A DNA stretch of 61,967 nucleotides, the filler included, from Diploschistes diacapsis (taxonomy: Eukaryota): assembly GCA_023645945.1 (NCBI GenBank). It is 16 parts of 16 records of this genome, joined end to end, with 100 filler letters (N's around TTAATTAATTAA, not from the genome) between each part and the next. Parts side by side here need not be neighbours in the genome. Positions count along the whole stretch, not along the records: positions 47,359 to 49,715 come from JALAIB010002242.1; 15 more parts are not named here. One strand, given 5' to 3'. This document shows positions 4,119 to 57,807 of this stretch, one piece after another (position 1 is the first letter of the stretch; every line of letters starts with the position of its first letter). The position numbers were made by a program, and so were the translations under genes. A model generated the notes under the pieces. That model saw only the letters and a list, made by a program, of their open reading frames with translations. It ran no database searches and was not told the DNA's origin.

Positions 4119-5213
4119 ATGACTCAAATACTACCGGAAGGGATCTATTATGATACACTGAGGACCTTGCGTACACTTTGCGAAAATACAACAAACCGGA
4201 CGAGATGCTGTCCCCATCAGCGCTTGATGCAAGTAGCTACGACGAACTTGTGTGTTAAATATCAAAGTGCTGACTGCAAAAAGGCTCTGGCATGGTCTCT
4301 TACATCGGTTGCTGCTGTGCTCACGAGTGGCCGACTCTGGCTTCGATGGAGGAAATCCAAAACACTACGGCTGGACGATAATCTGAATGGCCTTGCGCTC
4401 CTGGCCCTACTAGGCAGCATGGCGACTCTCAGTGCCTATATGCCCATTTTCTACTCAGCTGTGTACTATGACATGGGCCTCAATAACTCGCCGCCGTCGG
4501 ATAATCAGCAGATCGTCGAGGGGCAACTGTCGCTGGCTTCTAAAATGCAGTTCTGGGTGACCATTTACGCAGTGAAAGGTTCTTTCCTTGGAACGTATTA
4601 TCATGTCTTCAAGATCTCGGGCAACTTTCGCAAAGCATGGTGGTTCGCAGCAGCGTGCACAGGCTGTTCATTCCTAGCCACTTTTCTTTCGCCACTGTGG
4701 TACTGTGGCAGTCCATCCCAACTCCTGAATCTCGAAGCCTGCGCTGAAACGCCAGTGCAGTTCTTCATCACTCTGGAGATATTTTGGTTCATCTTAAACG
4801 TATCCAGTGACATTCTGTTGATTTCTCTACCCATGGCAATGGTACGCGGCCTCAAGCTACCCAAATCCCAAAAAATCGGACTGGGCGCAATCTTCGCCAT
4901 TGTCGCCCTTGACGTACTGTTCGACTGTCTCCGCACCGTCTATGCGCTCACCGACTACCTGGGCACCTACTATGATGCTGGCTTTGCGTGGGATATCTGC
5001 GAGGCTACATTCGCCGTCATCATATGCGCACTACCTCCCTACCGCTCGGTACTCTTCCCTTCGCAGTCAAAGAGACCAGCAGTGTCTTACAGCTCTCCAC
5101 AAAGGGGCCCCGTACAGACCTACACGCCACCGTCGCCGAAGCGCCAACAGCACAACCAGGACATAGAGCTGGATTCAATCCACGTCGAACATGCCACGCA
5201 TAGCTACGTTTGA
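4119..5213 (+). CDS. PTH11-like (fungal rhodopsin-domain) integral membrane protein without CFEM domain
   Basis: About 7 hydrophobic segments with family motifs LRLDD, IYAVKGSFL.Y..F, NVSSDILLISLP...L.LP..QKIGL..IF and W..CE...AVII..LP. A probable in-frame intron ends near 4283 (gctgac...aag); its donor is unclear. Confidence 0.85.
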   Translation: MTQILPEGIYYDTLRTLRTLCENTTNRTRCCPHQRLMQVATTNLCVKYQSADCKKALAWSLTSVAAVLTSGRLWLRWRKSKTLRLDDNLNGLALLALLGSMATLSAYMPIFYSAVYYDMGLNNSPPSDNQQIVEGQLSLASKMQFWVTIYAVKGSFLGTYYHVFKISGNFRKAWWFAAACTGCSFLATFLSPLWYCGSPSQLLNLEACAETPVQFFITLEIFWFILNVSSDILLISLPMAMVRGLKLPKSQKIGLGAIFAIVALDVLFDCLRTVYALTDYLGTYYDAGFAWDICEATFAVIICALPPYRSVLFPSQSKRPAVSYSSPQRGPVQTYTPPSPKRQQHNQDIELDSIHVEHATHSYV

Positions 5214-8233: not shown

Positions 8234-11200
8234 ATGTCGCTTGATACCGCGGGAAGTTTGATCGCTTTGCTGCAAGCTACCAAGGCTTGCATCGATTATA
8301 TCAAGGATGTCAGGGACGCGAAAGAAGAGAAGCGCGCTCTTCTGGACGAGCTGCTCTCGGCACATACTCTGCTCAATACCATCCAGCTGTTCGCGAATCC
8401 TGATACAGGACAAACTTATCTTGCCGCCACCAGGGATTTGATTTCTAAAGGCGGTCTGGATCTATACAAAGATAGTCTGGAGGAGCTGCAACGGCTCGCG
8501 GGGAAGAATAGGTTCAAGTGGCCTTTTCAAAAGAAGGACGTTGAAAAGCATCTTGCCACAGTTGAGAGGGCAAAGTCGCTGTTGACTTTGGTCATACAGG
8601 GCGATCATGTGAAGCTTTCTAGTGCTATCTACGAAGAAGTGCAACGCATGACAGAGTCGTTAAAGAATGCCGAGCATATCTCTCGCACAGATGCCGAGAG
8701 AGGAGTACTCGATTGGATCAGCCGTTCAACGCCAGAACTGGACCACCAGCGAATCGCCAAAGCTAGACTCCCGGGAACGGGAGAATGGTTTCTTCAAAGG
8801 AAAGAATTTGCGGAATGGCACAGGAACTCCGAGCCTTCCGGCCTTTGGACCGTGGGACATCCAGGAGTGGGAAAGACCATCCTCTCATCTTTGGTGATAG
8901 ATGAATTACTGGAAATCGAGCTCGAAAATGGCGCCGGCGTAGCATACTTTTACTTTGACTATACAAAGAGGGGCGCTCATACTGCAGACTATCTTCTTCG
9001 AAGCATTATCAGACAGTTGTCTGCTCTTAAGACGCCTTTGCCGAGAGCTCTTCTTGATTTTTACAAGGCTTACTCTTCCAGGCCTATCTTTGCTAGCGTT
9101 CTGGCCTCCGTTCTTAGTTTGGTTGTGCAAGAGTTCACAGACGTCTTCGTAGTCGTAGATGCACTTGATGAATTCGAGGAAGGAGCGGAACGTGTTGAGC
9201 TCTTGGAATATCTAACGACCTTGTCACAGAACTCGTTCAAGCTATTGGTGACCAGCCGTCCTCATCCTAACGATATCAAGCGGAAGCTGAGTGCTTTTCG
9301 CTCTCTCGAAGTAGAGGCAAGCGCCGACGACATCAGAGCGTTTCTCAGCCAGACCATTGAGAAAGATTCCGAAGCGGTTGAGGTGATGGAGGAAGACGAG
9401 GACTTGAGGGAGGATATTGTTAATACATTAATGGAGAGGGCAAAGGGAATGTAAGCTACTGAAACACACTTGCGATCCTTGACCAACCATACCTCTAGGT
9501 TTCTTCTCCCAAAGCTACAAATCCGAGGCATACTCCAACAGCAGTCTTCGCGTGATATGAGAGAGGCGCTAGAAGAGCTTCCGGATCAACTTGACCTCGA
9601 ATTCGACAAAACTTGGGAACGGATTCAGAGTCAGCACAAGTCACGGATTGCTTTGGCCGAGAAGACCTTGACGTGGCTTTGCTTTGCTAGGACGGCGCTT
9701 AGGATTGATGACATCCGAGATGCTCTCAGCATCAGACCCAATGATGTCTGTCCAGACATCAAAGGCCGCCCAAATCCAAAGGGCATTGCAAACTGTTGCT
9801 TCGGATTGGTAACCCTAGACACTACCCACGACGTGATTCGTTTCGTCCATTACAGTGTTCAGGAATACTTCAGGGGTTCCAGAGCGCAAAAGAACTTCCC
9901 TGAAGGACAGGCGCTTATTGCTCAGACGTGCATCACATACCTCACGTTTAAAAATTTTTCGCAGCCATGCAAGAATCGGCAGGTGCTCGACCAACGACTG
10001 CAGGAGTACCCATTCTTGCAGTATGTCGCTTGCCACTGGGGCTATCATTGCAGCCAGAGCGAAGATGAAGATACGAACGATCAGGCATACGAGAAGATCA
10101 TTGAGAGTCCAGCCGTGTATCAATCAATGCTGCAAGCCCTATGCAGCTTCGAAGGAAACTGGGGGTTAGATCGCGATGACGTTGTGCAGGGTTATATCAC
10201 TTTAATTAGTAGGTATCATTTTGCCGCAGCTTTCGGGCTTGTGTCTGTACTTTTAAAGTTATTCGAGTCCCAGAATGCCGAAGTAACCATGCTGTGTGAT
10301 GCGAGGGGGCGATTCCCTATTCACTATGCGGCAGCTAATGGCCACGAAGGCATGGTCACTCTACTTTCCAGCATGGGTATGGCAGATTTGACAGCCATGG
10401 ACGACGATGGGAGAACTCCCGTTGCCCTTGCTGCAGAGGCAGGACATAAAGCTGTTACAAAATTACTTTTGGAGGAAGAGGGTGTTAAAATCGATAGTAA
10501 AGATAAGAATGGCGAAACGCCGCTGTTCTTAGCCGCTCGAGGAGGACACGTTGCAATTATCGAGATGCTACTCCAGAAAGGCTCGATAGATTTGAACCCT
10601 AGGCAGATGTTCAATGGAACCACGCCTATAATGGAGGCGGCTGTGCATGGCCACGACAAGGCCGTCAGAGTCATGGCAGAACACGATGGGATCGCAGTGG
10701 ATGCAATGGATAGCGTGCGGCGAACACCGCTCTCTTTGGCCGCGGAGAGAAATTACGTTGAAACTGCTCAAGTCTTGCTCGAATGTCCCCAAGTCAACAT
10801 CAACTCGGAAGATGTCCGCGGCCATACGCCATTATTTCATGCTGCCTGGGCTGGCGCATTTGAGATGCTCCGGTATCTCATCTCACGTAGGAAGATAGAC
10901 ATCAACCACAGAAGCCATTTCGGAGAAACCCCCTTGTCTATAGCTGCACGCTCTGGATACGACTCTTGCGTACGTCTTCTGCTTTCAGATACACGAACCG
11001 AAGTCAATACTCAAGATTTCGAACTACGGTCTCCCTTGGAACATGCGGTCCGTAACGGTTACGGAAATGTGGTCCGGCTGTTTCTGCAAGATCCTCGGGT
11101 CAAGCTATCGACGAAGAATGGATGGAGTCGTACACCACTGCACTATGCCATTAGGAGTAAATACGTCGACATTAGTGAAATGCTAGAACAGGAGATGGAG

Positions 11201-14363: not shown

Positions 14364-15269
14364 ATGTCTTCTCAACCAAGAAAAATAGTCTTCGTCTCAG
14401 GGGCAAATCAAGGATTGGGTTTTGAGATCATCCATGTCACCGCTCTCCGCGAGCCGTCATCCGTGTACATAGTTGCCTGCAGAAAATTCGAAAATGGAGA
14501 GGGGGCTGTGAAGCAACTGAGAGAGCTTGGTGTCGAGTCCCAGATCGAAATTCTGCAACTTGACGTTACCAATGACGACCAGATCATGGATGCTGTCAAG
14601 CACGTAGAGACCAAGCACGGAAGGCTAGATGGTAAGAGCACGTTCCTACCTTGAGGGCCTGCAGAGCAGCCGTAACTACGTCCTTGAGGTGTTCTTGGAG
14701 CTAACTGAGATCTAGTTCTTGTCAATAACGCGGGAGCTTTGATTTTTCCAAAAGACGATTCTCTCAAAGCCTTGCGAGAGGCTTACAACGCCCTCGCTGA
14801 CCTTCATATATCATCGGTGGCAGTTCTGAGCACCGCTTTCTTGCCGCTGTTGCAAAAAGCACCTCAGCTAAGGGTAATCAACATCTCATCTGGTCTTGGT
14901 AGCATGACAAATCAGAAGATAAGGAAAGTTGGTCGATTTCCTGTATACGGAGTTAGTAAAGTCGGCGAAAATGGGGTCACCGTACACATGCAGGTTGCGG
15001 AGAACGATCGCAACCAAGAGCCAATCGAGAAAGGAAGTAAAGTAGAAGGTAGAATCAAGTTCTATACGGTCATGCCTGGTGTCCTCAAAACTGCTGGCTT
15101 TTCCAAGCCACTTGGCTTGAAGCCCAGCTTCAAATGGCCAACTCACGCCAAAGATGCCAAGGAAGGAGCAGAGGTAATAACACGGCTCATAACAGCCCCA
15201 GAAGGTACATACGAGGGTGGAACGTTTTGGGAGTTCGAAGGGGGCGAGATGAGAGTAGCTCCCTGGTAA
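14364..15269 (+). CDS. Short-chain dehydrogenase/reductase; intron 14632-14715
   Basis: SGANQGLG Rossmann motif, spliced LDVLVNNAG, NISSGLGS and catalytic YGVSK. Confidence 0.9.
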
Positions 15270-17918: not shown

Positions 17919-19864
17919 CTATGTCCTCCCATTCGGCCCCTTCCTATGCCCTCCTTCATCTTCTTCGTCGCTGCTCATTCCACCCAGGCTGTATCTCGGT
18001 GCACCCTCTCGCTCTTCGCGCAAGCTATCAAGCTCATTATTATCGACACCGAACGCCGAAGCCTCGAGGTCGCCGCGCATTGACCCCTGCGACATGAATG
18101 GTCTCGAAGTGTCCGCCCCAACCAGGCCACGGTAGCCTCTTCTGCGGCGACGATCCTGCCAAACGTACCAGCCAAAGCAGACAGCGAGAATGGCGACAAT
18201 GACGAGAGCGATAGATCCTGAGCGATAGTATGCCGACCATCGCTCTTTGCTAAGCGTCTCTTCGGCCTGCTTCTCTGCCTGTGTGCTGTTCGGGTGGCCA
18301 CCAACGCTGGTCTGTGGCACCTTTTCGCCATTAATACGGGAATCGGCTGGCTCGCCGCCCACGCTGCCAATATCGACGCCCATGAATCGGTCAAGCATGT
18401 CTCGCGTTCTTCTCGGGTAGTCAAATGGCACCATATGGGAAGCGTTGTAGAAGAGGACGTAGGTGAGGTTACGAGCTTCTTGGTAGTACCCTGCCGGCTC
18501 TCCCTCGAATGTCCAATCTTGGCGTGGTGCCCATGTTCCGGGCGTGAGCTCGAAACCCTTTCCCCCATTCCATTCCATGTTGTGGATAAGACTCTCTGTA
18601 CCATAGTGACTGCAAATCAAATCCTGGTCACCAGAGAACAGAAGAATCGGTACCTGCTCGAGGATGTTGGGCAAAATGTCCACGGATGGTTTAGAGTGCC
18701 GGGCTTTAAAAGCTCCTCCCACAGCGCCATTGCATTCACTCCAACCAGTCTTTTTCTCCGGGTTTATGTGGAGAGCTTTAACAACATCCTGGCGACGAAG
18801 ATAAGAGGTAATCTGCTTCAAATCCGGAGGCCAATTCATCCCACAGCTTGGATATGTATCGTCCAACCGAGTGTCGTACATGTTGACGCATCGTCCGTCC
18901 TTGACTGTGAGCTTCAAGATCTGGTGCAAGATCTTCTCACAACTCGGATAGCTGACCTGCAGGTCCGTGCCGGCGCTGTCAAGCTCACCCTTACAGAGGC
19001 TCTGTTGAGACTCGAGTTGTTTTGCGATATCGGAGTTTTTGGCGACTATATTCGACTTGTACGCGTACTCGAGGTAAGCGAACGATTGTTCTTTTGGCGA
19101 GACCCATCCGTTGCCAATTAACAGACCCTGAAGGTTCCACTTCTGCTGAGTATTTAACTCGGCATTTTTGTCTAAAATGGCTTGGGCGATATAGGGGATA
19201 TGCTGACCAGCGTATGATTCACCAGCAATATACAACTATATGGCTCTTAGCAAAGTAGGCATGAAAGAGAAAAGAAACGCACATCATTTGACTCTTGCTC
19301 AGGGAACAGAGCAAAGTACTTTTCTAAGAATTCGATGAACTGGTCAGACATTTCACTTAGTTCGTGAAGGTAGCTGTCACTGTCGACGTAACTGAATCCC
19401 GTTCCAATGGGGTTGTCGACAAATAACAAGTTGGCAAATTCGTCCCAAGAGCCCGGGTTGTACTCTAGCTTATCATTATCTTTCACCCTATACGGCCCGA
19501 TTTCCATCAATGCTCCATCTAAAGAGCTGCATCCTGGCCCGCCATTCAGCCAAATAACGGTTCGGTGCCTGTTCGCCAGGTGCTTATTCTCGAAATGCCA
19601 GAAGAAAAGATTGCCGTGATGCTCAGGAGCAACTTCGATGTGGCTACATAACAGATGAGTCAATGTGTGCTGCAACAAGGATAAAATAACTTACCCAGCA
19701 TGCATCCGTAAAGGTGGTCCATCAGGCTGGCCGGGAAGCGACTGGATATAGTAATCCGCAGCTGTCTTTGCAGATACTAATGGACTCCATAATACAGCGA
19801 ATGTAAAGAGTGATAAGGGCAGAATTGAATGCAAGGCAGAGAAACTTCGTAATGGGTCAACCAT
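17919..19864 (-). CDS. KEX1: Pheromone-processing serine carboxypeptidase Kex1 (S10); introns 19644-19694 and 19236-19282
   Basis: Signal peptide, [26 protein letters not shown] nucleophile, [16 protein letters not shown], and a C-terminal TM helix with acidic tail. The start codon could be slightly upstream. Confidence 0.95.
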
Positions 19865-20221: not shown

Positions 20222-21057
20222 TCAAAACAGCTCACCAAATCCTTTCTCCGAATCTTTCTTGATCAGTTCCAACATTCCCTAGAGTTTCCGTTGAGTCTCG
20301 TTGAGTACAAAATCTATCTTGCTTCTCCTTACCTCTGGCATTACTGGCTCTCCATTTGCTCCCTTGATGTACCTAAAGGGCATCTGAGTGCTCTCATGCC
20401 TGTTGATTTTGAGCTCCGGGTGGTCTACGTAGGAGAGCTGGTCAAGGGACACTCGAAGAGTCATTGCTGCACTTGGCCTACACGCGGTCTGCTTACCTTG
20501 TTTTGTCCAGACAACCTCACGTGTTACGCGAACTGCAGTATCTGTGGTCATTTGCACGGGTCCTAGTCGACGTCCCTGGAAGCCCTTCTTGCGCAGTTCC
20601 GACGTGCGGTCTGTACAAATCAATGGATCATGTCTCGGGTGGATACTACACAACCAGCTCACCTCGTGGTGGATCATCGCCTATGATTTTCATGAGCAAA
20701 ATGTCTAGGCAATAATTATTGGATGAACGTGCCTAAGATTCCGCCAAAGAGGAAAACGTCGAAGTCCAAGGCGTCTGAAGGGTCTAGCTCCTTTTCTGCC
20801 GCCGGATCGAGCAGACAGACACGCTCCTTATTTGAGGCATAAATGTCTTCGACTCCTTGATGCTCAACTACAAAGCCAGTAGTCTCGATGAGAGCAGTCG
20901 GAAGACGCAAGCTTGAAGGTACCGAGGAGAGACAGAATTTCACACCCGCTTGCGCTGATTCCTTAGCTATGGATGCATATTCCAAAGCAGACCAGTCTCC
21001 TAGTTCGGGATCTAAGTGTTCAACGACAAAGGTTAGGGTCGAGCCTCTTTGGATCAT
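20222..21057 (-). CDS. SFM1: SPOUT-family protein arginine methyltransferase Sfm1 (DUF431); introns 20681-20732 (GC-AG), 20611-20662, probable 20452-20496, 20279-20332
   Basis: VVEHLDPE..W..LEY, CLLDP.A, FLFGGILGDDPPRDRT.ELR, RRLG..QMTTDTAVRVT, D.PE and MPFRY. Confidence 0.9.
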
Positions 21058-21426
21058 GGCAGGTTGTTGCAGCGCAGAACTGTGATAGAACGCCCAAGGC
21101 GGAATGCTCTTGGTGATGCAGGTAAATTGGTATTTTTTGAGGAACTATAGAAAAGACACGAGCTTGCAACTGTACCAAAGTCGACTTCTAAATAATTGCA
21201 AATATAGTGCAAGTAGTTGGAATCACTCACCACTTTGTGTTTAGAGTTGCTCTTACCGAGGCCGTTTTATTTCCGTAAAGTCCCGCGCATCAACGGGGAA
21301 TTTGCTCCACATACCCACCACCTCACCTTCATGCTTCGAACCAGAGGGTCTGCGTTGTGTTGACAATGCTCGATGTCCAATTGAAGGCCACGCCTCATTG
21401 GCATCGACAAGATCCACCCTAAAAGA

Positions 21427-22717
21427 ATGAAAGCTCTCAATAACTCATCACGCTTCGCCGGCCCATCGATGCGCTTCCCCATACAGAACATATGCCCAGC
21501 GTGCCGGCGCCGGACCAACGCACTCCCCATCCGCCAAACACGGCGCAGACATGCGTCAACAGCTACGCCCAAGCGCTCGAAGACCGCACTATTTTTTCCA
21601 GGTAGCTCCAGCTCCTGTGCTATCTCGTTGCGGGTACTAATCGGCTGCAGGCCAGGGAGTCCAGCGCGTCGGCATGGCCACGGACTGGGTGGAGGCCTTT
21701 CCCCGAACATGCAAACCCTTCCTCGAGGAGATGGACGAGCACCTACAGGTCCCGCTATCGCGGATCATTGCCGAGGGTCCAAATTCCAAGCTCAACGCCA
21801 CCGAGAATTCTCAGCCCGCCATCATGGCAGTCAGTATTATGGTTCTAAGGGTACTTGAACAAGAGTTTGGCTTCAAGACCGCGGAAAGGGTAGACGTCAC
21901 GCTCGGTCATTCGTTGGGCGAGTTTGCCGCCATCGTGGCCGGAGGCTTTCTGGACTACAAGGACTCGCTCCGAATCATCAGGCGAAGGGCAGAAGCCATG
22001 AAGCAGTGCACGCAGGACGCCATCGTGGCAGGCAACGGAGCCGAATACGGCATGGTCGCGCTCATAGTCGAGCCGCACCAACTGGGCTCCCTCATCAGCG
22101 TCATCGAGGAATTTCTAGGTTATACGCCATTCCCTTCGGCCGGCTCGAACGTCGACGAGGATGCGAACATACCCACGATCCAGCAGGTAAGAATTGCAAA
22201 CGTCAACAGCAAGAACCAGATTGTCCTCAGCGGAGATGTCGCGCGGATATTATCGCTGCTGGTACAACTGCGCCAGTTTGGTGGGCATTACCCGCGAGCT
22301 GTGAGATTGAACAGCGATTCGCCGTTCCATTCACCCATCATGATGCCTGCGAAGGCCGTGATGGCTAATATGATGGCCAAGGCGAACATCAAGTTTCCGG
22401 GCCAGTCTGAATGCATCATGAACGTAACAGGGAAAACGGTAGGGAGCGCACAGGAGATAAAGGATCTTCTTGCAAGACAGTGTGTGGAGACCGTGCAGTG
22501 GTGGGACAGTATCAAGTTCGCAGATCAAGAACTGGGCGTTCGGAGATGGGTGGGTCTGGGACCGGGCAAGGTTGGAAGGAATTTGGTTGGTAAAGAGGTG
22601 GGAATGAAGGGCAGAGATACTATCAAAGGAGGAGGTGTCTGGGGAATTACGAGTCCATTCGAGGTCGATGACGTCTTGGCGGCATTGGAAGAGACTGAAG
22701 TGATAGAGCAGGATTGA
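21427..22717 (+). CDS. MCT1: Mitochondrial malonyl-CoA:ACP transacylase (FabD-like); intron 21602-21650
   Basis: Arg-rich presequence, spliced FFPGQG.Q, QPAI, GHSLGE nucleophile, ANVNS..QIVLSG and PFHS. Start may be 21427 or 21469. Confidence 0.93.
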
Positions 22718-25169: not shown

Positions 25170-25499
25170 TAATCTTTAATAGCTTGGCTTGGCGCGGTTC
25201 TTTTGTTATGTAATTTAACCGCCTGCTCAGCGCGTTAGCCCGTTCGTTTACTTTATTTATGATTCGTTTAATCGTGAAACGATATCGTTCGAAATTTTTT
25301 AATCAGCGAAACTATTTTAAATAAAAATTTCTTATTATCGTGAACTTTAATAAGTTTATATGGTTTATATAGATTTCGGTTTCTATTACTTCGTGAATAT
25401 AGATATATTATTCGTTTAAAATAACGATTCTGGCGAGTAATTCCTGATCGCCGATATCGTAATTGATTTCTACTGGTAACATCTTTCTTAAATAACAGG

Positions 25500-27546
25500 T
25501 TATCAGCCGCCACTTACTGCTGTCGTTAGGTTATAATAGATTTTCGAGAATTTATAGTAGTTATGAATGTCTTGGAAGATTAATACGAACAGTATTTAGT
25601 GGTACGACGGAAGTTATAGATTCTTACGGAGAAGATATGGGATTATATACGACAATATTATGATCTATCGGAGTACGGATATGGGGGTATTACGAATATT
25701 ATTAAAGTTATTTAACGAAACTGTTATTTCGAAGGAATGAAGAAATAAGTTACGGACTTTATTAAATAATACGAGAGCTGTTAGAAAAATAAACATTCTA
25801 CGTATAGAAAATATAGGATTCTATAAATTATTAAGAAACCAGATTAATTATAAAAAACAATAACGATGGATTTTATAATCAAATTATTAATATCTAAGGA
25901 TCCAGTAATAGATGTTTCATATAATAATATTTAGGTCATAATAAATAAGTTTAATAATAAACCTTACTACATATCTTTTAGAAAAGACTATAATGTAAGA
26001 TAATTATATCACATATAGATAGATCGAATTGTGAGAATTTATAAATATTTAAAAAAAATTATTAACGATAAAAATAAGTTCTTTATTTTAAAATATTGGA
26101 AAATCATGATAGAAGTATTCGGCACGAAGTTAAAGCATTTAAACGTTTATTACTTATAAATAGACGGTTAAATAGAAAGAATAAACTAGATTTTTAAATA
26201 GTATTTACGGCATTACGTTAATTAAAATATGGATAACTAGGTTAAATTGTAATTAAACGCTCAATATTACCTTAACAACAGATATAGAGAAATTAAGAAG
26301 ATTTAAAATATATAATTACTCAACGACAAGGCATTGAATAATATTAAAAGACTAGAAATCTTAAGGAAGAATCCTTAGCTAAAAAAGAAGAATAAGGTCT
26401 ATTTGTATACGAATAATTTCAAGACACGTAAACCTTTTAAGAAACTCGATCACGTTAAAATTAAACTTTTCTTTATCGATAAATAACCCGTTATACCGAA
26501 TAAAATTAAACGAGTTAATTATCGACTTAAGTTATTAAAGGACGCGAAAGTTTATCTAATGTTTTATTCCCGATATCTCGAATTAACATATCTAGATATA
26601 CCGTTATAAAAAATCTTTTATTTCGAATTAAATAACGAGAACGAATACGAAATCGAAAGAATTCTGAATGATGGTTTTAAGAGATTTCTTGTTAAGTAGA
26701 AAGGATACTTAGCGGAGTAGAATATATGGGAATCTTTAGAAAACCTGAGTAACTATAGAAATAAGATAAAGAAATATTATAAACTTATTTAATTTGGAGG
26801 GATAAGAGCTTTATTCTTTAAAAATTAATTTAACTAAACCGGCGATATTGTAGTTAATTTTGATAATTCTGGACCAAATTCCGAAGGCACGTCTTTCTAA
26901 ACGTTCGCGTACGTTTCGAACGATTTTAAATCTAGTTCTTTCGTTAAATATTTCGTTTACGCGTCCGTACGATCTTTCGTTAATTTAAAAACTTTTCGAT
27001 TACGACGAATACGACATTTACGTTAGAGACAACGATCTTTAATCTCACGAAGTTATTTTTTTAATTTTTTCTTTTATTTATTATCCTCGTTAATAAGTTT
27101 TTTATCTTTATCGATCTCGTCTTTTTTCGAAAGGATGGTCCGTTTAATTACCTTTTATGTAATAGAAATACAGTTCTTCTTACCGGACTTAATATAACGG
27201 ACGCATTTTATTAAGATAGAAGGTATTTTGATATAATCGTGAGAAAATAAGTAATGATTATAAAATAATATGTTTAGAAAACTTCGAAGACGAATGATAA
27301 AGTTTAAACGTTTCTTTTGTATTAAAGATAAAGAAGACATCGTTTTTCTACGATTTAGGATTCTCTTTTGTTTAGTATTTATATTAATTTTTCGGTGCTT
27401 GTCGGGTCGATAAAGTTGAAGGAAGGGGATAATATTACGATCTAAGGTACTAGTCTGGAATACTTAGCACGTAATAGTTAGTCGAGTACTTCCCAATCAT
27501 TTCTTATATATAGTTTAATTAGGGTAATACAGGTCACGTGACGAGT
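25500..27546 (+). mobile_element. RIP-degraded Ty3/Gypsy chromovirus 3' half (integrase, chromodomain, PPT, start of 3' LTR at 27433)
   Basis: TMDFI; YYL*IDG*IER (= YHPQTDGQTER); chromodomain EYEIERIL..FLVK*KGY..NIWE..ENL; PPT gaaggaaggggataa followed by tattacgatc (RIP form of TGTTACGATC). Confidence 0.9.
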
Positions 27547-40567: not shown

Positions 40568-42341
40568 TGTTATGATCTCTATCTATACAAGGTATACACG
40601 AGTAGGATCAAGGTGGGTTTGGTCTCTGTTAGAAGAGGAGTGTGGTAGGAAAAGAAGATAAAGCAGTTATAGGTTTTAGACTATTTTTAGAAAGAAGGCT
40701 TTAAAATGATAAAAATAACGAATATAAATTGATCCCGAGCAATAATTAGGAATATTTATAAAAATAAATATACTTTCTTTTACGAAAGTAGAGTCGTGTT
40801 TATATATAATTAATTCGCTCGTCGTTTATCGTAAGTTTAGCGAGCGGTATTCTCGAGACTCGCCGTTTATAAGAATAAACGCGACCGTCGAGCGATAACG
40901 AAAGCTTGCTCGCCGCTTATAAGAATAAGTATGAGTAATAAACGCATTACGTGATCCTTAGTCCCGTGATTGATTTATTTATAAAATTAGGACGTGTTAA
41001 GTTTAATATTTGGATCGTAATATTATCCTTTTTTTTTAATATTATCGGCCCGATAATTCGCCGAAGGGTCTAATATAAATATTAAATAAAAGAGAATCTT
41101 AAGTCGTGAGATAACGATATCTTTTTTAACTTCTCGTAATCGGTCCGTTAAACGAATCTAATTTTCCCGTTCTATCGCTCGTTATAAAATCCTTATTATT
41201 TTTTTTTATAAATATTATTCTTTTAACGATAAGTTTTATTTCGTTATACCGTTTGGTTCTAAAGTTTTAAAATATTCGAAATATGTACGCCGTGATCGTC
41301 CTTGCGTGGAAATGTTATAAACTCGCTTAAAACGGACATAAAATGTATTAAAGCGGTTTATATAAAAGGATATTAACCGGTTTTTTAAACTTATTCGTCG
41401 TATCGAGCGGAATAAACTTCTTTTATAAAAAACATAAACCCGTGTTAATATAAAGATAGAATATCTGGCTGAATTATTGGCTGTAAAAAACAAAAACTTA
41501 AATCGTATTATGATTAATATGTCGATGTTTGAGGCGAAGATTCTTAACGGAAATCCATCCTTTTTCGTTAATGATCCCGGGGAGTTGTCTTCGTTGAATG
41601 GAGGTGCCGCTACTTAACTAGCTGGTTTATTTGGCTGGTAAGTCTGCGGTATTTTTTTAACTTGCTCCCGCAGTTGCTCAAGTTTTCTAGGAGTTCCCAC
41701 GTGTTCTATTCTGACGGATATCTTTTTTATTTAATAAGGAATCTTTTAAAACTATTATTTAAAATTTTCTCGATTTCGTATTCGTTTTTATTATTAGGTT
41801 CGAAGTAGAAAATTTTTTATAATAGTATATCTGGATGTGCTAGTTCGAGATATCGCGAATGAAATATTGGATAAATTCTCGCGTTTTTTGGTAGCTTGAA
41901 TCGATAATTAACTCGTTTAATTTCGTCCGGTATGACGGGTTGTTTATCGATAAGAAAGGGTCCGATTTTAACGTAATCGAGTTTCTTAAAGGGTTTGCGT
42001 GTTCTGAAATTGTTTGTGTATAAATAGACCTTATTTTCTTTTTTTAATTAAGGATTCTTCTTTAAGATCGCGTGTCTTCTAATATCATTCAGTATCTCGT
42101 TATTAAGTGATCGTGTATTTTAAATCTTTTTAACTTCTTTATATTTGTTGTTAAGGCAGTATTCGGTATTTGATAATAGTTCAACCTAATTATTTATATT
42201 CTGGTTAACGTAATGCCGTAAGTATTATTCGAGAATTTAATTTTTTTTTTTATCTAATCGTTTGTTTATAGGTAATAAACGTTTAAATACTTTAGCTTCC
42301 TGTCGGACGTTTTTATTATAATTTTCTAGTATCTTTAGATA
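40568..42341 (-). mobile_element. Chromovirus 3' end: integrase, chromodomain, PPT and 3' LTR family B (40568-41022)
   Basis: EYEIEKIL..RFLIK*K.YPSE*NTWE..ENLSNC; reverse PPT ttatcctttt after the LTR; LTR matches 48935-49389 and 61473-61927. Confidence 0.9.
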
Positions 42342-42441: not shown

Positions 42442-43197
42442 AAGAAAATATTTATATAATATAATAAATATATTTATTATATTTATTATTCAACGGTTAT
42501 ATTCTTGAACATTTTTTTTTATAAAAGTGATAATTTATTTAATTTAATATCGCGATAACGGTTTATAATATCTAAATAATCCTAGTTTGCTTATCGCTTA
42601 TGTATTATTTCGACTATTAATACCGTTTTAATAATAGTTTTTTTATTTTCTCGACGAGGGTATCTTTTCTTGCTTTTATTATTTAGTTTTTTTTAAGCTT
42701 TATATCTTGTCTTATTTTTAATAATATGGTTTTCACTATTTCTGATATATTCTTTAATATAGATTCGAAATCATCTTCTTATTTTAACGATTCGTTTATT
42801 AATATTTTATTCTTAAATTACGAGTCTCGTTCTTATTACGGGATATAATCTAAATCTTCTTTATTAAATAGAATAATTTTAGATCGTTTATTTCTTTCTT
42901 TTCTTTCACTTTCTTTTATTTTAATTTAATTGCGCGGGTTTACCCTACGTGTACGTTATAAAGAACGTGTTATCTTATCGGATCGTCGTCTTTAAAAAAG
43001 ATAAAATAATTAAAACTATAAAAAATAGAATAGGACAATATAGCAAGATAACTATACGCAAGGCAGGTTCATACTAGGACTAATTATTAAAGAAAAAAAG
43101 AGAGTAAGAAGGAAAAAATCCCCCTTTAAGTACCAGCAAGCCAAGACCCTGAACGCCGCTTGTCCGACTCTTGGCATGCTCCTCGCTTGGCCTTACA
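42442..43197 (-). mobile_element. Gypsy 5' LTR family E (43017-43197) plus gag start
   Basis: Reverse-complement homolog of 52987-53745, differing mainly by C>T/G>A transitions. Confidence 0.85.
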
Positions 43198-44473
43198 GTA
43201 AGCACCGCGCTGTTGTTCGGGTTTTTAGCCGCCTCCGTTTCTTCGTTTAGTTGATCAGTAAGGTACTTCGCTTGTTTTATAGATTTCTTTTCGATTAATT
43301 TAAGAATCTTTCGTAATCATTTTATCCGGGCCTTATGTTCCATTAGTTGAAAGAAAAGCTTTCGTCTTTTCTCTTCTTTTAATTCTAATCTAGACTTCGC
43401 CTAAGTACACATCCTATTTATAATCTTTTAAGATGTCGATACATAGTTCTTCCGACCAAAACAAGTACACCTTTCATAACGGGAAGAAATGGACGGTATG
43501 ATAATATAACGGTAAGAAACAGAATAGTAAAAATAAAAGAAGTTAACGATTTTGTTTACTCGAAGGATTCGATCGGCAAGTTTATGGTTGCGAGAAGTTA
43601 AAAAAGATATCGTTGTTTTACGATTTAAGATTCTTTTTTGTTTAGTATTTATATTTATTTTTCGGAACTTGTCGGGCCGATAAGACTGAAGAAAAAATAT
43701 AGTATTACGATTTAAATAATTAAATAATAGTTTATTTAATATTTTATAATTAATCGGGCACTTCTTAATTTTTTCATATATATAGCTAATCACGGATATT
43801 AAATTACGTGAGACAGCTCAGCCCAGGGGCCTGCCAAGCTGGGGCTGCCAAGCCACGGCGGGGTCAATGCCCAGGTGCTTGCCAAGACACGGCAGGGTCA
43901 GGGGGTGGCTGTGTAGACGGGTAGTCCCCGAACCCCAGTAGGTCTAACATCCATACTACTTAACGGTGCCTTCCTCCCACCTAAATAGTTTCTTCTTCAG
44001 CTTTTCGAATCGAGACCTTTTACCTGTAGATGCTCAGCTACACATAATCCTTCCGGATCAGGCCCAGCCCCCGGTAGTGTAGTATCTCATTCCTGCGCTG
44101 GCGTTTCATTCCGTGATTGATAGATGTTCGATGATAAATGTTTATTAAAACGAATTTACCCGAGCAGTTATTTATTAGTAATAGTTCTATCGTGACAGCT
44201 TTGTTATCGGCAATCAGCTGTCGTTTTAAATTATATAAAAACATCATTATGGTTCCTGTAAGTCGCGGTGTGTTTATTTCTATAGATATCTTTAATTCTT
44301 ACACGAGATCAATTTATATTCGTTATTTCTATTATTTTAAAGCTTTTTTCCAGAGATCAGTACCGATTTATAATTGATCTACTTCTTTATCTATTTGCAT
44401 TCCTTTTCTATACGAGACCAAACCTACCTTGATCAATACCTCGTGTCTACCTTGTAGAGATAGAGATCATGAC
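43198..44473 (+). mobile_element. Chromovirus 3' region and B-related 3' LTR (43703-44473) containing a nested family-A solo LTR (43809-44108)
   Basis: Homologous to 27150-27546. The outer LTR ends ...gagatcatgac. The inner LTR runs TGAGAC..GTTTCA, with flanks ttacg/ttccg. Confidence 0.8.
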
Positions 44474-48934: not shown

Positions 48935-49715
48935 TGTTATGATCTCTATCTATACAAGGTATACACGAGTAGGATCAAGGTGGGTTTGGTCTCTGTTAGA
49001 AGAGGAATGTGGCAGGAGAAGAAGATAGAGTAGTTATAAATCTTAGACTATTTTTGATAAAAAGGCTCTAAAATAATAGAAATAACGAATATAAATTGAT
49101 CCCGAGTAATCGTTAAAGATATTTATAAAAATAAACACGCCCTTTTTCACGAAGGTAAAGTCGTGCTTATATATAATTAACTCGTTCGCCGCTTACCGTA
49201 AGCTTAACGAGCGGTGTTTTCGAGACTCGCCGCTTATAAGAATAAACGCGACCGTCGAACGGTAACGAAAGCCCGTTCGCCGTTCATAAGAATAAGCGCG
49301 AGTAGTGAGCGTATTACGTGATCTCTAATCCCGTGATTGATTTATATATAAAATTAGGACGTATTAAGTCTGGTATTTAGATCGTAATATTATCCTTTTC
49401 CTTCAATATTATCGGCCCGATGATTCGCCGAAAAATCTAATATAAGTATTAAATAAAAAAGAATCTCAAATCGTAAAATAATGATGTTTTTTTTAACTTC
49501 TCGCAATCGGTCCGTTGAACGAATCTAATTTTCTCGTTTTATCGCTCGTTATAAAATCCTTATTACTTTTTTTTATAAATATTATTCTTTTAACGACAAG
49601 TTTTGTTTCGTTATGTTATTTGGTTCTAAGATCCTGAAATATTCGGAATATGTACGCCGTGATCGTTCTTACGTGGAAATATTATAAACTCGTTTAGAAC
49701 GGACATAAGATATAT
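48935..49715 (-). mobile_element. Chromovirus 3' LTR family B (48935-49389), PPT and 3' region
   Basis: Near-identical to 40568-41350 apart from transitions. Confidence 0.9.
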
Positions 49716-50498: not shown

Positions 50499-51695
50499 TC
50501 ATTGTAGTCTTGGTCGCTTGATCTTATGATTCTTCCCTGTCACCAGCCCACGGACCTTGCTGTCCTTAGGCTGACCGCCGTTGTGCAATACGCCTTCCAA
50601 GGTAGCCTCTTCACTACCGTTATCATTTTTTAGGCTTGGTGTTCCTTCATCACTCCTATTGTCTAATCTCGTCAGGCCATCTCCATGCCGCTCTCTTTTC
50701 AGACCCTTCATTTTACGTGTTTGTAAATCTTGTAGTTCCTGCCGTCCAAGATGTATTCGGCCTATCTTGTCCCCAATCAGGTCTGTTCCGAGATTCTTCT
50801 TCGGCCGAGCCTATAAGCAAAAGGATGTTAATGCCTGCTAAAAGGTGCAAATTGCTCAGATGCTTTCGCCTTACCTCTGCCACTCTACCCTTTTTCAGAG
50901 CCGTTTTCAGCAGGGCTGAGTCCGGCTGCCTCACCCTTCCCAACCTGAAGTCAATCCGAGGTCCCATCTCTTCGAGTTCCACTCGTGGCAGCCTTTGACC
51001 ACTTCTTTTAGTAACTACACGCCATACACGCATGTAGACAAACTCCTGTTTCTCAACGGTCTGTGATTCCAACTCCGAAGCTGTAAATGTAATGATCATT
51101 TGAAGCGCTTCAATATCTAATTCTCCTGCTTCTTCACCTCTAAAGAAATCCACTAATATGTTTTTTGCAATAACGAACTTATTGCTAGGATCTGCGTCTT
51201 CAAATTGGGATCCAGAGAAGCTCAGGAGCGGCTTTATCCCAATATTACATTTGGGACCACCGAATTGGTGCAAGGCTCGAGCTGTGTCTTGTTGTACAAG
51301 ACACTCTAGCATGTCCAGTACCCTCCCCCCAAAGCACCGAACAAACGTGATGCAATGAGGCCTTTTTTTACTGTGACTAGAGAAGCAAATAAGGCTCGTG
51401 TCATTCTTCTCGCTAAAAAACTCCAGAGAAGAGGGGTCTTCGAATGGGTGAATGGTATTTTTCCTAGAGAATCGCACAGCTAGTGGACGCTTCAGAGTAA
51501 AGATGTCCGTGACTAGCGAATTCAGAAGAGATGATGTAGTCGTTGATCGAAGGAATAGAGTAGTCTTAGGATTTTCAATAAGCTGAGGAGCTTTTTTCGC
51601 AAGAGCCCGAGCAGATCGTGCATTTTTCGGTTTTCTTTTTCCCCTTGAGCAGGAGAACGTGTGGATCGCAAATATACTTACACTTCTCGCAACAT
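50499..51695 (-). CDS. RPF2: Ribosome biogenesis Brix-domain protein Rpf2; introns 51635-51681 and 50811-50874
   Basis: MLREVKPKNARSARAL...PQLIENPK, KNTIHPFED.SSLEFFSEKND.SL, SHSKKRPH, LPRVELEEMGPRIDF, and spliced KKN...D.IGDKIGRIHLGRQ.L..LQTRKMKGLK. Confidence 0.95.
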
Positions 51696-51897
51696 CTCGA
51701 TGCTTAGCCTTTACTTAAGATATCTTTGTTGATTTGAAGACCGACGTAACGTTCTGCAACCAGTGTAGCATAACTCACCTCAGATGCGGGAAGATGCTAT
51801 ATCGCTTTTGAATAGGCATATCACGATGTCCTAAATTGGGAGGGTGCGCGTGTTTAAGCGAGTACCAAATAATCTCATTAAAGCCCGGAATGGTGTA

Positions 51898-54627: not shown

Positions 54628-54854
54628 NNNNNNNNNNNNNNNNNNNNNNNNNNNNNNNNNNNNNNNNNNNNTTAATTAATTAANNNNNNNNNNNNNNNNN
54701 NNNNNNNNNNNNNNNNNNNNNNNNNNNATCCTTGGCAAAATTAAATTAATTTTAACTCGTTTACGCAAAGCATAAAATGAATAAGACGGATATTATTTTT
54801 TAAATAACGGAATTTATTTAAATTATTTTAAAAATAAGGATTTCGTGATCTGAA

Positions 54855-55013
54855 TGTGACCTACAGGGTCATAGATCCCCCGCTACCACAGCTGCGCACC
54901 TACATATAGTGTAATAGGGAAACAGTGCTTCGGGGTTCCTGAAAGCATTGTGGTTAGTCTTTTGGCTCAGTGGGATAGTGCTACCTAATAGGCACTACCC
55001 CCCCGCTGTTACA
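54855..55013 (+). mobile_element. Family C solo LTR (159 bp) with perfect 5-bp TSD CTGAA
   Basis: ctgaa|TGTGAC...TGTTACA|ctgaa. Confidence 0.92.
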
Positions 55014-56279
55014 CTGAATAAAGAAATTAAAATAAATATTGACGAAGATACGTTATCGTTGTTAAAAATGTTTCACATTAGCATGTCCCCGAAGGGATGA
55101 GCCAAACTATTAAATGACCGTGCTCTCGATAGCCGAGTTTAGTGAATTTCACTCGGACAATTTTGTCAAGAGAGCAGGCTGCTAAACCTATCATCCCGAA
55201 CTTCCCGGTGCCCTAGCGCTCGAGCCTAACTCGGCTATGTGTTGATTGGCTCTTAGCGCAATGACTTTCATGGCTGCCAAAGCAATTCACGCGCCTCCCG
55301 AAACCATACCCTAACCGTCTCTTCCAGCCGCCGGCGGCAAGTCCTGTAAAGCGTCATCCGCTCACGGTCCACATTCAACGATGTTCCGATACCGAACAAC
55401 ACCTTGTATGCTTTCCTCCACTATACGTACCATTCCGTAAGGATACAATATTGTATGCATGGACTGCAGCACGGGGAAACGGGAGAAAAGAGCATTGCAT
55501 AATTCGCGAAGTTGGGCCATATAGGAAAACCTGGCGTAGGGCCTTGCAAAATCCGACGCCGGGGAAGGCAATTTGTTCGTGCCGACGGACAACAATCGGC
55601 ATGATGCCATATGCCATCCGCGATCTGTGAGAGCGCGTTGGACGTCTATAAAGTCGACTTCAGGAGCACTATCATTTGGGCCATCTCCCGCCATCCCATG
55701 CTTTCACTCCCTTTGCTCAGCACATGTACCCGAATTCCTCATCATCCTCCAACGAACGAGTCCTCGGACGAAAGCTTCGAACACTCCACTCGTCACGATT
55801 CTGGACTTTCCGTATCATCCATCATTGCAGTGTACCGCGGTTTGCTGCTATCAGCAAGCTCTCGGTGGACCGGTGTACTGTCAATCCCCGGATCTGTCCT
55901 CAGAGAGCCCATCCTGTATAGCCGCCTCGATCTGACCATCTGGGCCACCCTTCTTCCGACCTCGTTTTTCAGGCTGGGTACTCATGGTTTGCAGGGTGCC
56001 AACTGTACCGAAGTGGAGGCTGAAGTGGAAAAGAGAAAAGGCGGTATTGTGGGAGGGATGAGAGATGGGACGAGAAGGTGAGAGGGAGGTCGGCCATTCT
56101 TGTAGAACAGCGCGCTCCACGCCAACGACGACGACAAGGCCAGAAGACAATCATCCCTGGAAAGGAGCTTGAACCCTCGAGGCTGCGAAGCCGCATAGAG
56201 TCTCATTTCATGAACCCTAAAGCCTGACGGTTTCTGACGAGGTACTTCAGGGACTGCGCCGTCGACGGGTGAGCATGGT

Positions 56280-56340
56280 GAGCAGACCTGAGCCGACCTG
56301 AGCCGACCTGAGCCGAAGCTTAGCCGGGCCTGAGCCGACA
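56280..56340. repeat. Degenerate 10-bp tandem repeat (CCTGAGCCGA), about 5-6 units
   Basis: gagcagacctgagccgacctgagccgacctgagccgaagcttagccgggcctgagccgac. Confidence 0.8.
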
Positions 56341-57807
56341 GCAGTGTAGGGTCACGTGAGTGAAGGGGGGCTGGCGGCGTGTGGATTGGGGTGGTGAAAC
56401 ACTAGACACAAGAAGAGTTCAGGATGCCCTATCATCTAATATATCTGTCCCGAAAACAATGCATGTTTCAAAAGAATCCAAGGCCGTGGCAGCCCAAAGT
56501 AGTAGGATAGTACATTTCCCCTTTCCCACTTTTGCCGCCCCCAGAGGGGAGCGGTATAGAAAGGAATAATACTGCAAAGCCCACTGCAAACCTCCGCCTG
56601 GCACGAATTCCACCTACCCTAGGGACTTTTCCCCAAATTTGCACACGATTCAATACCCGTGGCGAGCGAGGAAGATAAAAATGAAAAGTCTGAGCGTCCA
56701 TCACTGGTAGTTTGGGGGAGGGGATGCCGCTTGGGTGAGTAGTTGATTGACCGAGGGAAAAGATGGGACATCCAACGCAAAGCAAAGCACGGAACACAGC
56801 CCATGGCCAGGGCCGAGAGAGGGGAGCGGCGGAGGCGATCGTGAGAACTGCCGCTTCGCTCACTTTTTGCACTACGCTAGGGGTGGGTGATAAAAGAAGG
56901 GGCACGGAGAAAGTCGATCCGATGGAGATAAACTCCATTATCCACTGAAACCAATCTTGCTCGATAGAATCGACTTCTCGACATGGTACGGCTAGCTAGC
57001 TTGGCAGTGACAAGGGAGATTCCGTTATTGGTATATTGCATATTGTGTATTATCCCATTCCCCCTCCGCCTCCCCCNNNNNNNNNNNNNNNNNNNNNNNN
57101 NNNNNNNNNNNNNNNNNNNNTTAATTAATTAANNNNNNNNNNNNNNNNNNNNNNNNNNNNNNNNNNNNNNNNNNNNCCGTATTACACGTAGATACGTGCC
57201 CGATCTTACTTCTTTCAAGTTTCAGCGTCGTAAATGGATGCTATTAGACTAATAATACTAAAAATAGGCGACTTCTAAGGCGAAAAATAATAATAATAAT
57301 AATAGTATAATAACAGAAATCGCTTTCGAAAGATAGCAATAAAGGTTTATTTATTAATTAAATAAAGGTTCGATTAATTTAAAAACTTATATAAAATCCT
57401 AAGCTTTTTTATCGTAATTAATTAGATCGTAATTTTTAATTCGTCGATTTACTTATTGTAATTTTTCGTAAAAATTTTTTGTCGTTTTAAATAAATATGT
57501 CGTGCGTAGATTTATTATTATTAAATTATTCGTTTAGATAATATTTTATCGCGATAGATAAGATTAGATCTAATATTTCAGTTATAATTATAATTAAAGA
57601 TTAATTAAATCGAAGGTTCTGATTAATCGATCTTTTATTTGTCGTAAGAGGTTTTCGTCGCTTTTAGGTGTCGTAAACTTTTATTTTTAAAAACGCGTCA
57701 GCTCGCGTAGGCAGTATGAGATAAGATTAGGTCTAGATTCTTTCTATAGGTAGGTTGAATATTTTAGGTTTTGAGCCGAGTAGGTAGGCCTGAAGGACCT
57801 TTTTGAA

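Follow-up and report, generated by a model that had tools for sequence, protein, structure and literature searches.

The window analysed here is a stretch of 61,967 nucleotides from the genome assembly of Diploschistes diacapsis. Positions 1-25069 are ordinary ascomycete gene-rich DNA of ~50% G+C, while positions 25070-61967 consist of 15 small contigs of 2345-2377 bp each, placed in order of descending size with N44-TTAATTAATTAA-N44 linkers between them. Because this second portion is a concatenation of unplaced small contigs, apparent neighbourhoods across the linkers are artefacts. The AT-rich pieces of the window bear the signature of RIP: in most of them, TpA/ApT is 0.97-1.23 and (CpA+TpG)/(ApC+GpT) is 0.46-0.78, against 0.74 and 1.29, respectively, in the gene-rich 25 kb. 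The un-RIPped 25 kb harbors an NLR-like gene with NACHT/NPHP3_N and ankyrin repeats (8774-10945, plus strand), a Fung_rhodopsin-domain gene (4332-5054, plus), a two-exon serine carboxypeptidase S10 (17922-19690, minus), an SFM1-like arginine methyltransferase (20719-21144, minus), a gene with an acyltransferase domain (21641-22714, plus), and a short-chain dehydrogenase (14709-15266, plus); a Zn_clus gene was looked for in positions 1-25069 and none was found. Among the small contigs, one with 38% G+C contains a 333-aa open frame (50716-51714, minus) with a full Brix domain (E 7.9e-41). Another, at 54728-57076, has 50% G+C, no RIP signature, and several open frames of 113-175 aa, of which the 175- and 158-aa frames match no Pfam family.

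Four of the small contigs contain the junction between a retrotransposon LTR and its purine tract, and all four of these junctions bear the antisense open reading frame (ORF) that is the subject of this study. Each copy (here c41, c49, p25, and p42) lies on its own 2.4-kb contig. On the minus strand of the c41 piece, Pfam recovers SH3_Tf2-1 (41844-42032) and, at the C-terminus of pol, a chromodomain (41646-41768; Chromo, E 8.1e-7, passing the cut-off), with the stop of the pol frame near 41590. The p25 element encodes a chromodomain on the plus strand (26658-26783; Pfam, E 8.4e-6, likewise passing the cut-off) and an Integrase_H2C2 domain at about 25635-25799 on the same contig. The host element is a Ty3/gypsy chromovirus, as defined by an integrase with a C-terminal chromodomain. 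Pfam detects no pol domain on the p42 contig. The p25 contig also has a fragment of RT_RNaseH (25336-25530, minus) that runs in the opposite direction to its integrase and chromodomain, which points to a nested or rearranged element.

The putative 3' LTR of the c41 element spans 40568-41116 on the minus strand; its outer end starts TGTTATGATC, and its flanks differ between copies. Its equivalent in the c49 element, a repeat common to both, spans 48935-49483. The outer end of the LTR starts with TG in three copies, with unrelated flanking sequence, and the inner end does not show a clean CA/TG. Because the contigs are only 2.4 kb long, the window contains no element with LTRs at both ends. The polypurine tract of the c41 element lies at 41121-41135 (minus), and comparison of the sequences places its equivalents at 49488-49499 in c49, 43595-43606 in p42, and 27325-27336 in p25; the tract is conserved in 4/4 copies. 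The junctions of p25 (27325-27385) and p42 (43599-43655) belong to elements on the plus strand.

The ORF occupies the interval between the pol stop and the 3' LTR and is antisense to gag-pol, the arrangement termed aORF-3R (PMC7264820). In c41, the LTR ends at ~41116, the ORF extends from 41117 to 41440, and the stop of pol falls near 41590; p25 has the same layout in mirror image. The start codon stands at the inner edge of the LTR, and the codons that follow are the complement of the purine tract, which in this way encodes the first residues of the product. The ORF and pol converge tail to tail, and in c41 ~340 bases separate the end of the cysteine motif described below from the chromodomain. 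Orientation relative to pol can be seen in two of the four copies, c41 and p25, which have pol domains on the same contig; c49 is cut by its contig end and p42 is the copy without a pol domain. The placement proposed in an earlier, sequence-only reading of this DNA, in which the frame runs antisense to pol between the polypurine tract/3' LTR and the chromodomain, is borne out by the matches on the opposite strand, to Chromo and SH3_Tf2-1 in c41 and to Chromo and Integrase_H2C2 in p25. A 125-aa sense-strand open frame (41239-41613, minus) begins just downstream of the chromodomain in a register other than that of pol and overlaps the antisense ORF; it matches no Pfam family, and the other copies do not preserve its register.

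All four copies are relics inactivated by RIP. The c49 copy (49484-49714, plus) retains its ATG, has TAA at codons 15, 68, and 75, and is truncated by the contig end at 49715. Its six-position Cys/Tyr motif (49574-49672, plus; spacing 2-6-11-2-6) preserves Cys3 as TGT, with TAT or TAC at the remaining five positions, and a TAA derived from a Trp codon follows at 49685-49687. In the c41 copy (41117-41440, plus; downstream end approximate), the start is degraded to ATA and six TAA codons fall in frame; the motif (41207-41305, plus) has the same 2-6-11-2-6 spacing, Cys6 intact as TGC, TAT at the other five positions, and the Trp-derived TAA at 41318-41320. The peptide strings given for these two loci in the sequence-only reading were reproduced letter for letter on the plus strand. 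The p25 copy (26957-27340, minus) starts with ATG and, counted from this Met, stays open over 61 codons, within a stop-to-stop frame of 102 aa (27158-27463, minus); its motif (27170-27262, minus; spacing 2-5-9-2-7) has Cys4 as TGC and Cys6 as TGT, and the Trp-derived TAA lies at 27155-27157. Finally, the p42 copy (43269-43610, minus) has ATA for a start and a stop-to-stop frame of 129 aa (43431-43817, minus), with Cys5 intact as TGT in a motif (43443-43535, minus) of the same 2-5-9-2-7 spacing, and the Trp-derived TAA at 43428-43430. The start codon is thus ATG in c49 and p25 and ATA in c41 and p42, and in every window copy a TAA stands four codons past position 6.

The c41 and c49 copies are closely related, with 87% identity over 416-781 bases, and p25 and p42 are far more diverged than this pair. 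Across 81 aligned codons, c41 and c49 differ by 29 transitions and 0 transversions; changes outside the CpA context, of the sort required to turn a Trp codon into TAA, are also seen (GGG versus AAA, TT versus CC). Short contigs of this family number in the thousands in read sets X1-X3, and nearly all of their changes are transitions. Among the variants listed (40 of 870), a G>A change at 41304, within Cys6 of c41, occurs in most X1 contigs, and no variation at four of the Tyr codons appears among those listed across X1-X3.

Relatives beyond this pair (p25, p42, and two database proteins) provide what we regard as the decisive support for reading these relics as a former gene. A profile of the four copies, searched with HMMER against 1.84 billion representative proteins, recovered two proteins at E<0.001: P0001 (118 aa, E 1.6e-4) and P0002 (89 aa, E 6.3e-4). 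Both are singleton ORF calls without protein names from metagenome assemblies (ENA), on contigs of 2139 bp for P0001 and 20875 bp for P0002, and we assume that they too lie antisense in LTR elements. P0002 carries cysteine at each of the six positions, with spacing 2-5-9-2-7, a His inside each of its two C-x-H-C knuckles, and a Trp in place of the TAA found in all four window copies. It starts Met-Met, the second Met coinciding with the conserved start position at the edge of the polypurine tract. P0001 keeps Cys at positions 1 and 4, as well as the Trp; its first residues are kept too, which may be because these codons overlap the purine tract. In BLASTP comparisons, P0002 aligns with p25 at 35% identity over 54 residues without gaps (E 1e-9), P0001 aligns with p42 (E 2e-7), and P0001 and P0002 align with each other (E 1e-7); identity between ORF lineages is only 26-37%. 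The codons after the TAA, which lay outside the search profile, also align ungapped with P0002 (E 6e-4) and P0001 (E 1e-8). This homology, continuing in frame past the TAA, implies that the TAA is a doubly mutated Trp codon and that the ORF ran on into the charged helix.

These comparisons uphold the reconstruction on which the sequence-only reading rested. It had reversed RIP to turn Tyr into Cys at six positions, and each position is indeed Cys in at least one of the six homologous sequences. It had also taken the TAA after the motif for a former Trp, which both database relatives carry at that place, and had posited a charged helical segment beyond it, which the continuations of P0002 and P0001 match.

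Further searches returned little beyond these two proteins. A word-indexed protein search with the four-copy alignment gave 0 matches, and similar searches with P0002 and with the six-sequence alignment returned only P0001 and P0002; no named protein was found among the relatives of the ORF in protein database searches. Scans of metagenomes yielded 0 loci with an R/Y-coded junction pattern and 116 pattern matches with P0002, no relative being among them, and no relative was found in viral contigs searched with P0002 and P0001. A 25-residue match to P0002 in a bacterial MAG (L001), from a search of genome contigs, was taken as spurious. By ESM, recognition of P0002 was 2414, above the mark of 2300, and the clusters closest to it hold unnamed Ascomycota proteins 76-106 aa long; an ankyrin-like assignment of the p42 ORF in the ESM Atlas (recognition 1622, clusters at 0.88) was judged a composition artefact. 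The relatives vary in where they end: P0002 ends at the position of the second TAA of p25, P0001 ends at that of the fifth (window 26957-27076, minus), and P0001 and p42 lack the ~18 codons between the two. These differing ends could be alternative C-termini or could reflect a small intron; no splice signals are readable in the RIPped DNA at the second TAA of p25, where P0002 ends.

It might be argued that no gene was ever present, and that the conservation reflects chance or sense-strand functions such as the polypurine tract and 3' untranslated RNA, with the Cys/Tyr pattern a by-product of RIP in AT-rich DNA. Considered alone, the pattern would not exclude this. The stop-free form [CY]x2[CY]x6[CY]x5-12[CY]x2[CY]x6-8[CY] occurs only at the c41 and c49 loci in six frames of ~35 kb of AT-rich DNA, and its expected chance rate is a mean of 0.047 per window, with at least one occurrence in a fraction 0.043 of 300 second-order Markov simulations; yet, with so many windows scanned, this is no more than suggestive. 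Moreover, the polypurine tract has reasons of its own to be conserved and covers the first six codons, and sense-strand open frames do exist here (125 aa in c41, 70 aa in p42). Those sense frames, however, fall in different registers between copies, and in the comparison of p25 with p42, 8-10 codon pairs include a stop in each of the other frames, as against 1 in the antisense frame. This comparison also gives the antisense frame a BLOSUM score of 139, versus 71-100 in the other five frames, and 10/51 synonymous changes among differing codons, versus 3/44 in the complementary register; the protein-guided alignments lean slightly toward the antisense frame. Transversions at codon positions 1, 2, and 3 number 19, 7, and 25, and at a G+C content of 28-32% the p25 and p42 frames remain open over 102 and 129 codons. 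A shuffle test rejects a pattern without a reading frame: among 3000 column shuffles of p25 versus p42, a BLOSUM score at least as high as observed arose in a fraction 0.006, zero stop pairs (stops as few as observed) in a fraction 0.0007, and high BLOSUM jointly with few stops in 0/3000. The in-frame homology past the TAA, and the existence of an independent protein, P0002, with six Cys, Trp, and a Met start at a database-wide E of 6.3e-4, argue further against the absence of a gene, which is already disfavoured and which we consider scarcely credible. Alternatively, the ORF could once have been real and yet a passenger, a captured fragment of a host gene with no role for the element. One source discussed for such ORFs is the capture of genes by retroelements (PMC7264820), and p42 retains the ORF without detectable pol. 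But no host protein family matches the ORF in Pfam or in protein searches, and the frame, start, six Cys, and Trp are kept between lineages as dissimilar as those compared above. In addition, offsets inside the ORF are all multiples of three (0, -12, -15, and -18 between c41 and p42; 0, -3, and -45 between p25 and p42), and a 2-base indel separates copies just upstream of it. These offsets were read from diagonals, with a few off-chain matches taken as noise, in place of global DNA alignments, which past the polypurine tract are too noisy for indel counts. The retention of frame, Cys, and Trp, together with indels in multiples of three, argues for selection during the spread of the family, and a passenger origin appears improbable to us.

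A different question is whether the motif truly belongs to the Gal4-type Zn(II)2Cys6 family (PF00172), such that the element would encode its own dimeric DNA-binding transcription factor. Several features would suit this assignment: the host is an ascomycete, the sequence has six Cys, with both C-x2-C knuckles invariant in 6/6 sequences (c41, c49, p25, p42, P0001, and P0002), the motif lies near the N-terminus, and in P0002 Cys1 is preceded by Pro. Both c41 and c49 have the exact spacing 2-6-11-2-6, and the x9 and x7 loops of the other sequences are within family ranges. A long helix also follows the motif. In an AlphaFold model from the six-sequence alignment (pLDDT 58, all helix, low confidence), the helix block after the motif scores 67-73 and its residue pattern is amphipathic, while the Cys region scores about 48-54 and is unreliable. 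In Gal4-type Zn(II)2Cys6 proteins, the loop between Cys2 and Cys3 is basic; here, however, it contains 0-1 Lys/Arg in each of the six sequences, and in four of the six, including the only intact one (P0002), its length is x5 instead of x6, within the overall spacing 2-5-9-2-7. The Pro two residues before Cys4 is absent. The Zn_clus (PF00172) scan, which the sequence-only reading had put forward as a check, gave no match to P0002 or P0001 (hmmscan, E up to 10) or to the window copies (E up to 0.1-1), with the caveat that HMMER filters may drop a match broken up by changes in loop length. At E up to 10, P0002 matches no Pfam family at all and P0001 matches LPD11 alone, weakly; neither protein matches DUF3716, a fungal domain rich in cysteine. 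Sequence searches of the PDB returned no Gal4-type chain, and the matches that they did return, coiled-coil peptides at E about 1 and a zinc-finger stretch of coronavirus nsp2 at E 0.67, were dismissed. Canonical Zn(II)2Cys6 identity, as the sequence-only reading had it, is therefore not shown by these sequences, and we would regard true membership as a tentative proposition with the balance leaning against it. Of the broader claim of an accessory gene resembling a transcription factor, the conserved antisense accessory gene stands, and a canonical Gal4-type cluster is not supported.

We consider it very likely, then, that the ORF is a dead copy, mutated by RIP, of a genuine small gene, one that a family of Ty3/gypsy chromoviruses carried antisense between the pol stop and the 3' LTR. 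The ORF with its position, orientation, and conservation, and its six Cys and Trp, can be read directly from the copies and their relatives; the properties of the product are proposed more conditionally. The gene would start with the ATG at the inner edge of the LTR, with its first codons on the complement of the polypurine tract, and would run toward pol. Its product would be a protein of ~90-120 residues, beginning with a basic, hydrophobic head of ~27 residues and continuing into a core of C-x2-C-x5/6-C-x9/11-C-x2-C-x6/7-C, a Trp four residues later, and then a charged amphipathic helix. By analogy, the six cysteines would very probably bind zinc in some form. The protein may have been made from an antisense transcript starting within the U3 part of the 3' LTR or next to it, and it may pair through its helix. 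Analogy also suggests a nuclear location and a regulatory role, in which the protein would serve as an accessory regulator acting on the element's own DNA or RNA. It is conceivable, if rather unlikely, that the product was a miniature Gal4-like regulator, with a divergent binuclear zinc cluster and a pairing helix, that was expressed from an antisense 3'-LTR transcript and bound the LTR to tune transcription or counter silencing. Were such a regulator of chromoviruses real, these elements could have fed the very large Zn2Cys6 families of ascomycetes, or have drawn on them.

Minus-strand genes read from a 3' LTR are also found in retroviruses, as in HBZ of HTLV-1, which is a bZIP protein, and ASP of HIV-1. 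The ORF described here resembles these genes in adjoining the 3' LTR on the minus strand, with the LTR as the likely source of an antisense promoter (here predicted), but has no likeness to them in sequence or domain. A comparison with retroviral antisense genes has been made before for antisense ORFs of LTR retrotransposons (PMC7264820).

An antisense gene with this placement is already in print for Botrytis: brtn, located between pol and the 3' LTR of Boty-like elements (Zhao et al. 2011, Virology 417:248; cited in PMC7264820, PMC8365987, and PMC4227169). Boty is, like the present element, a gypsy retrotransposon of a fungal host whose pol has a chromodomain (PMC4227169), and brtn is likewise an extra gene between pol and the 3' LTR, antisense to gag-pol (PMC7264820). 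In contrast to brtn, the four copies here are all RIP-dead, and their host appears from run labels to be an ascomycete associated with lichens or rock; the likeness is one of position and orientation. In plants, PMC7264820 and PMC11963269 list antisense ORFs between pol and the 3' LTR in Grande (gene23), RIRE2, Retand (TRP28), and PvRetro13. Gene23 of Grande is described there as encoding a nuclear protein and as having an upstream promoter of its own (PMC7264820), and TRP28 of Retand is predicted to bind DNA (PMC7264820, PMC11963269). The plant ORFs share the position and orientation of ours, are conserved within element lineages, and are suspected of a nuclear or DNA-binding accessory role; unlike the ~450 bp here, however, their regions are kilobases long, their hosts are plants, and their domains are TRP28, SMC-like, or absent. 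The word "zinc" appears 0 times in the review PMC7264820, and both "zinc" and "cysteine" appear 0 times in the Retand paper. Zhao et al. 2011 aside, full-text searches turned up no paper that describes a zinc-cluster or cysteine motif in an antisense gene between pol and the 3' LTR. The PF00172 domain itself offers a partial parallel, with six Cys arranged as two C-x2-C knuckles and two single Cys, an N-terminal position, a helix after the cluster, and a fungal host; one further difference is that the whole protein here is only ~90-120 residues long and lacks the middle domain of fungal transcription factors.

LTR retrotransposons seldom carry accessory genes, and those known are poorly understood; the review PMC7264820 describes the functions of antisense genes between pol and the 3' LTR as still unknown. 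The combination of a six-Cys motif and a helix offers a testable handle on such functions, through metal content, binding to DNA or RNA, cellular location, and influence on LTR activity. Reading RIP backwards, from Tyr to Cys and from stop to Trp, can recover a hidden gene; it did so here because P0002, a less mutated relative, confirmed every inferred residue. Among the four relics, the p42 antisense frame is nearly open to ~43035, with 3 stops in its first 176 codons (43035-43610), and crosses a patch that looks, by eye from the translation, less AT-rich; p42 may be a non-autonomous derivative that retains the accessory gene.
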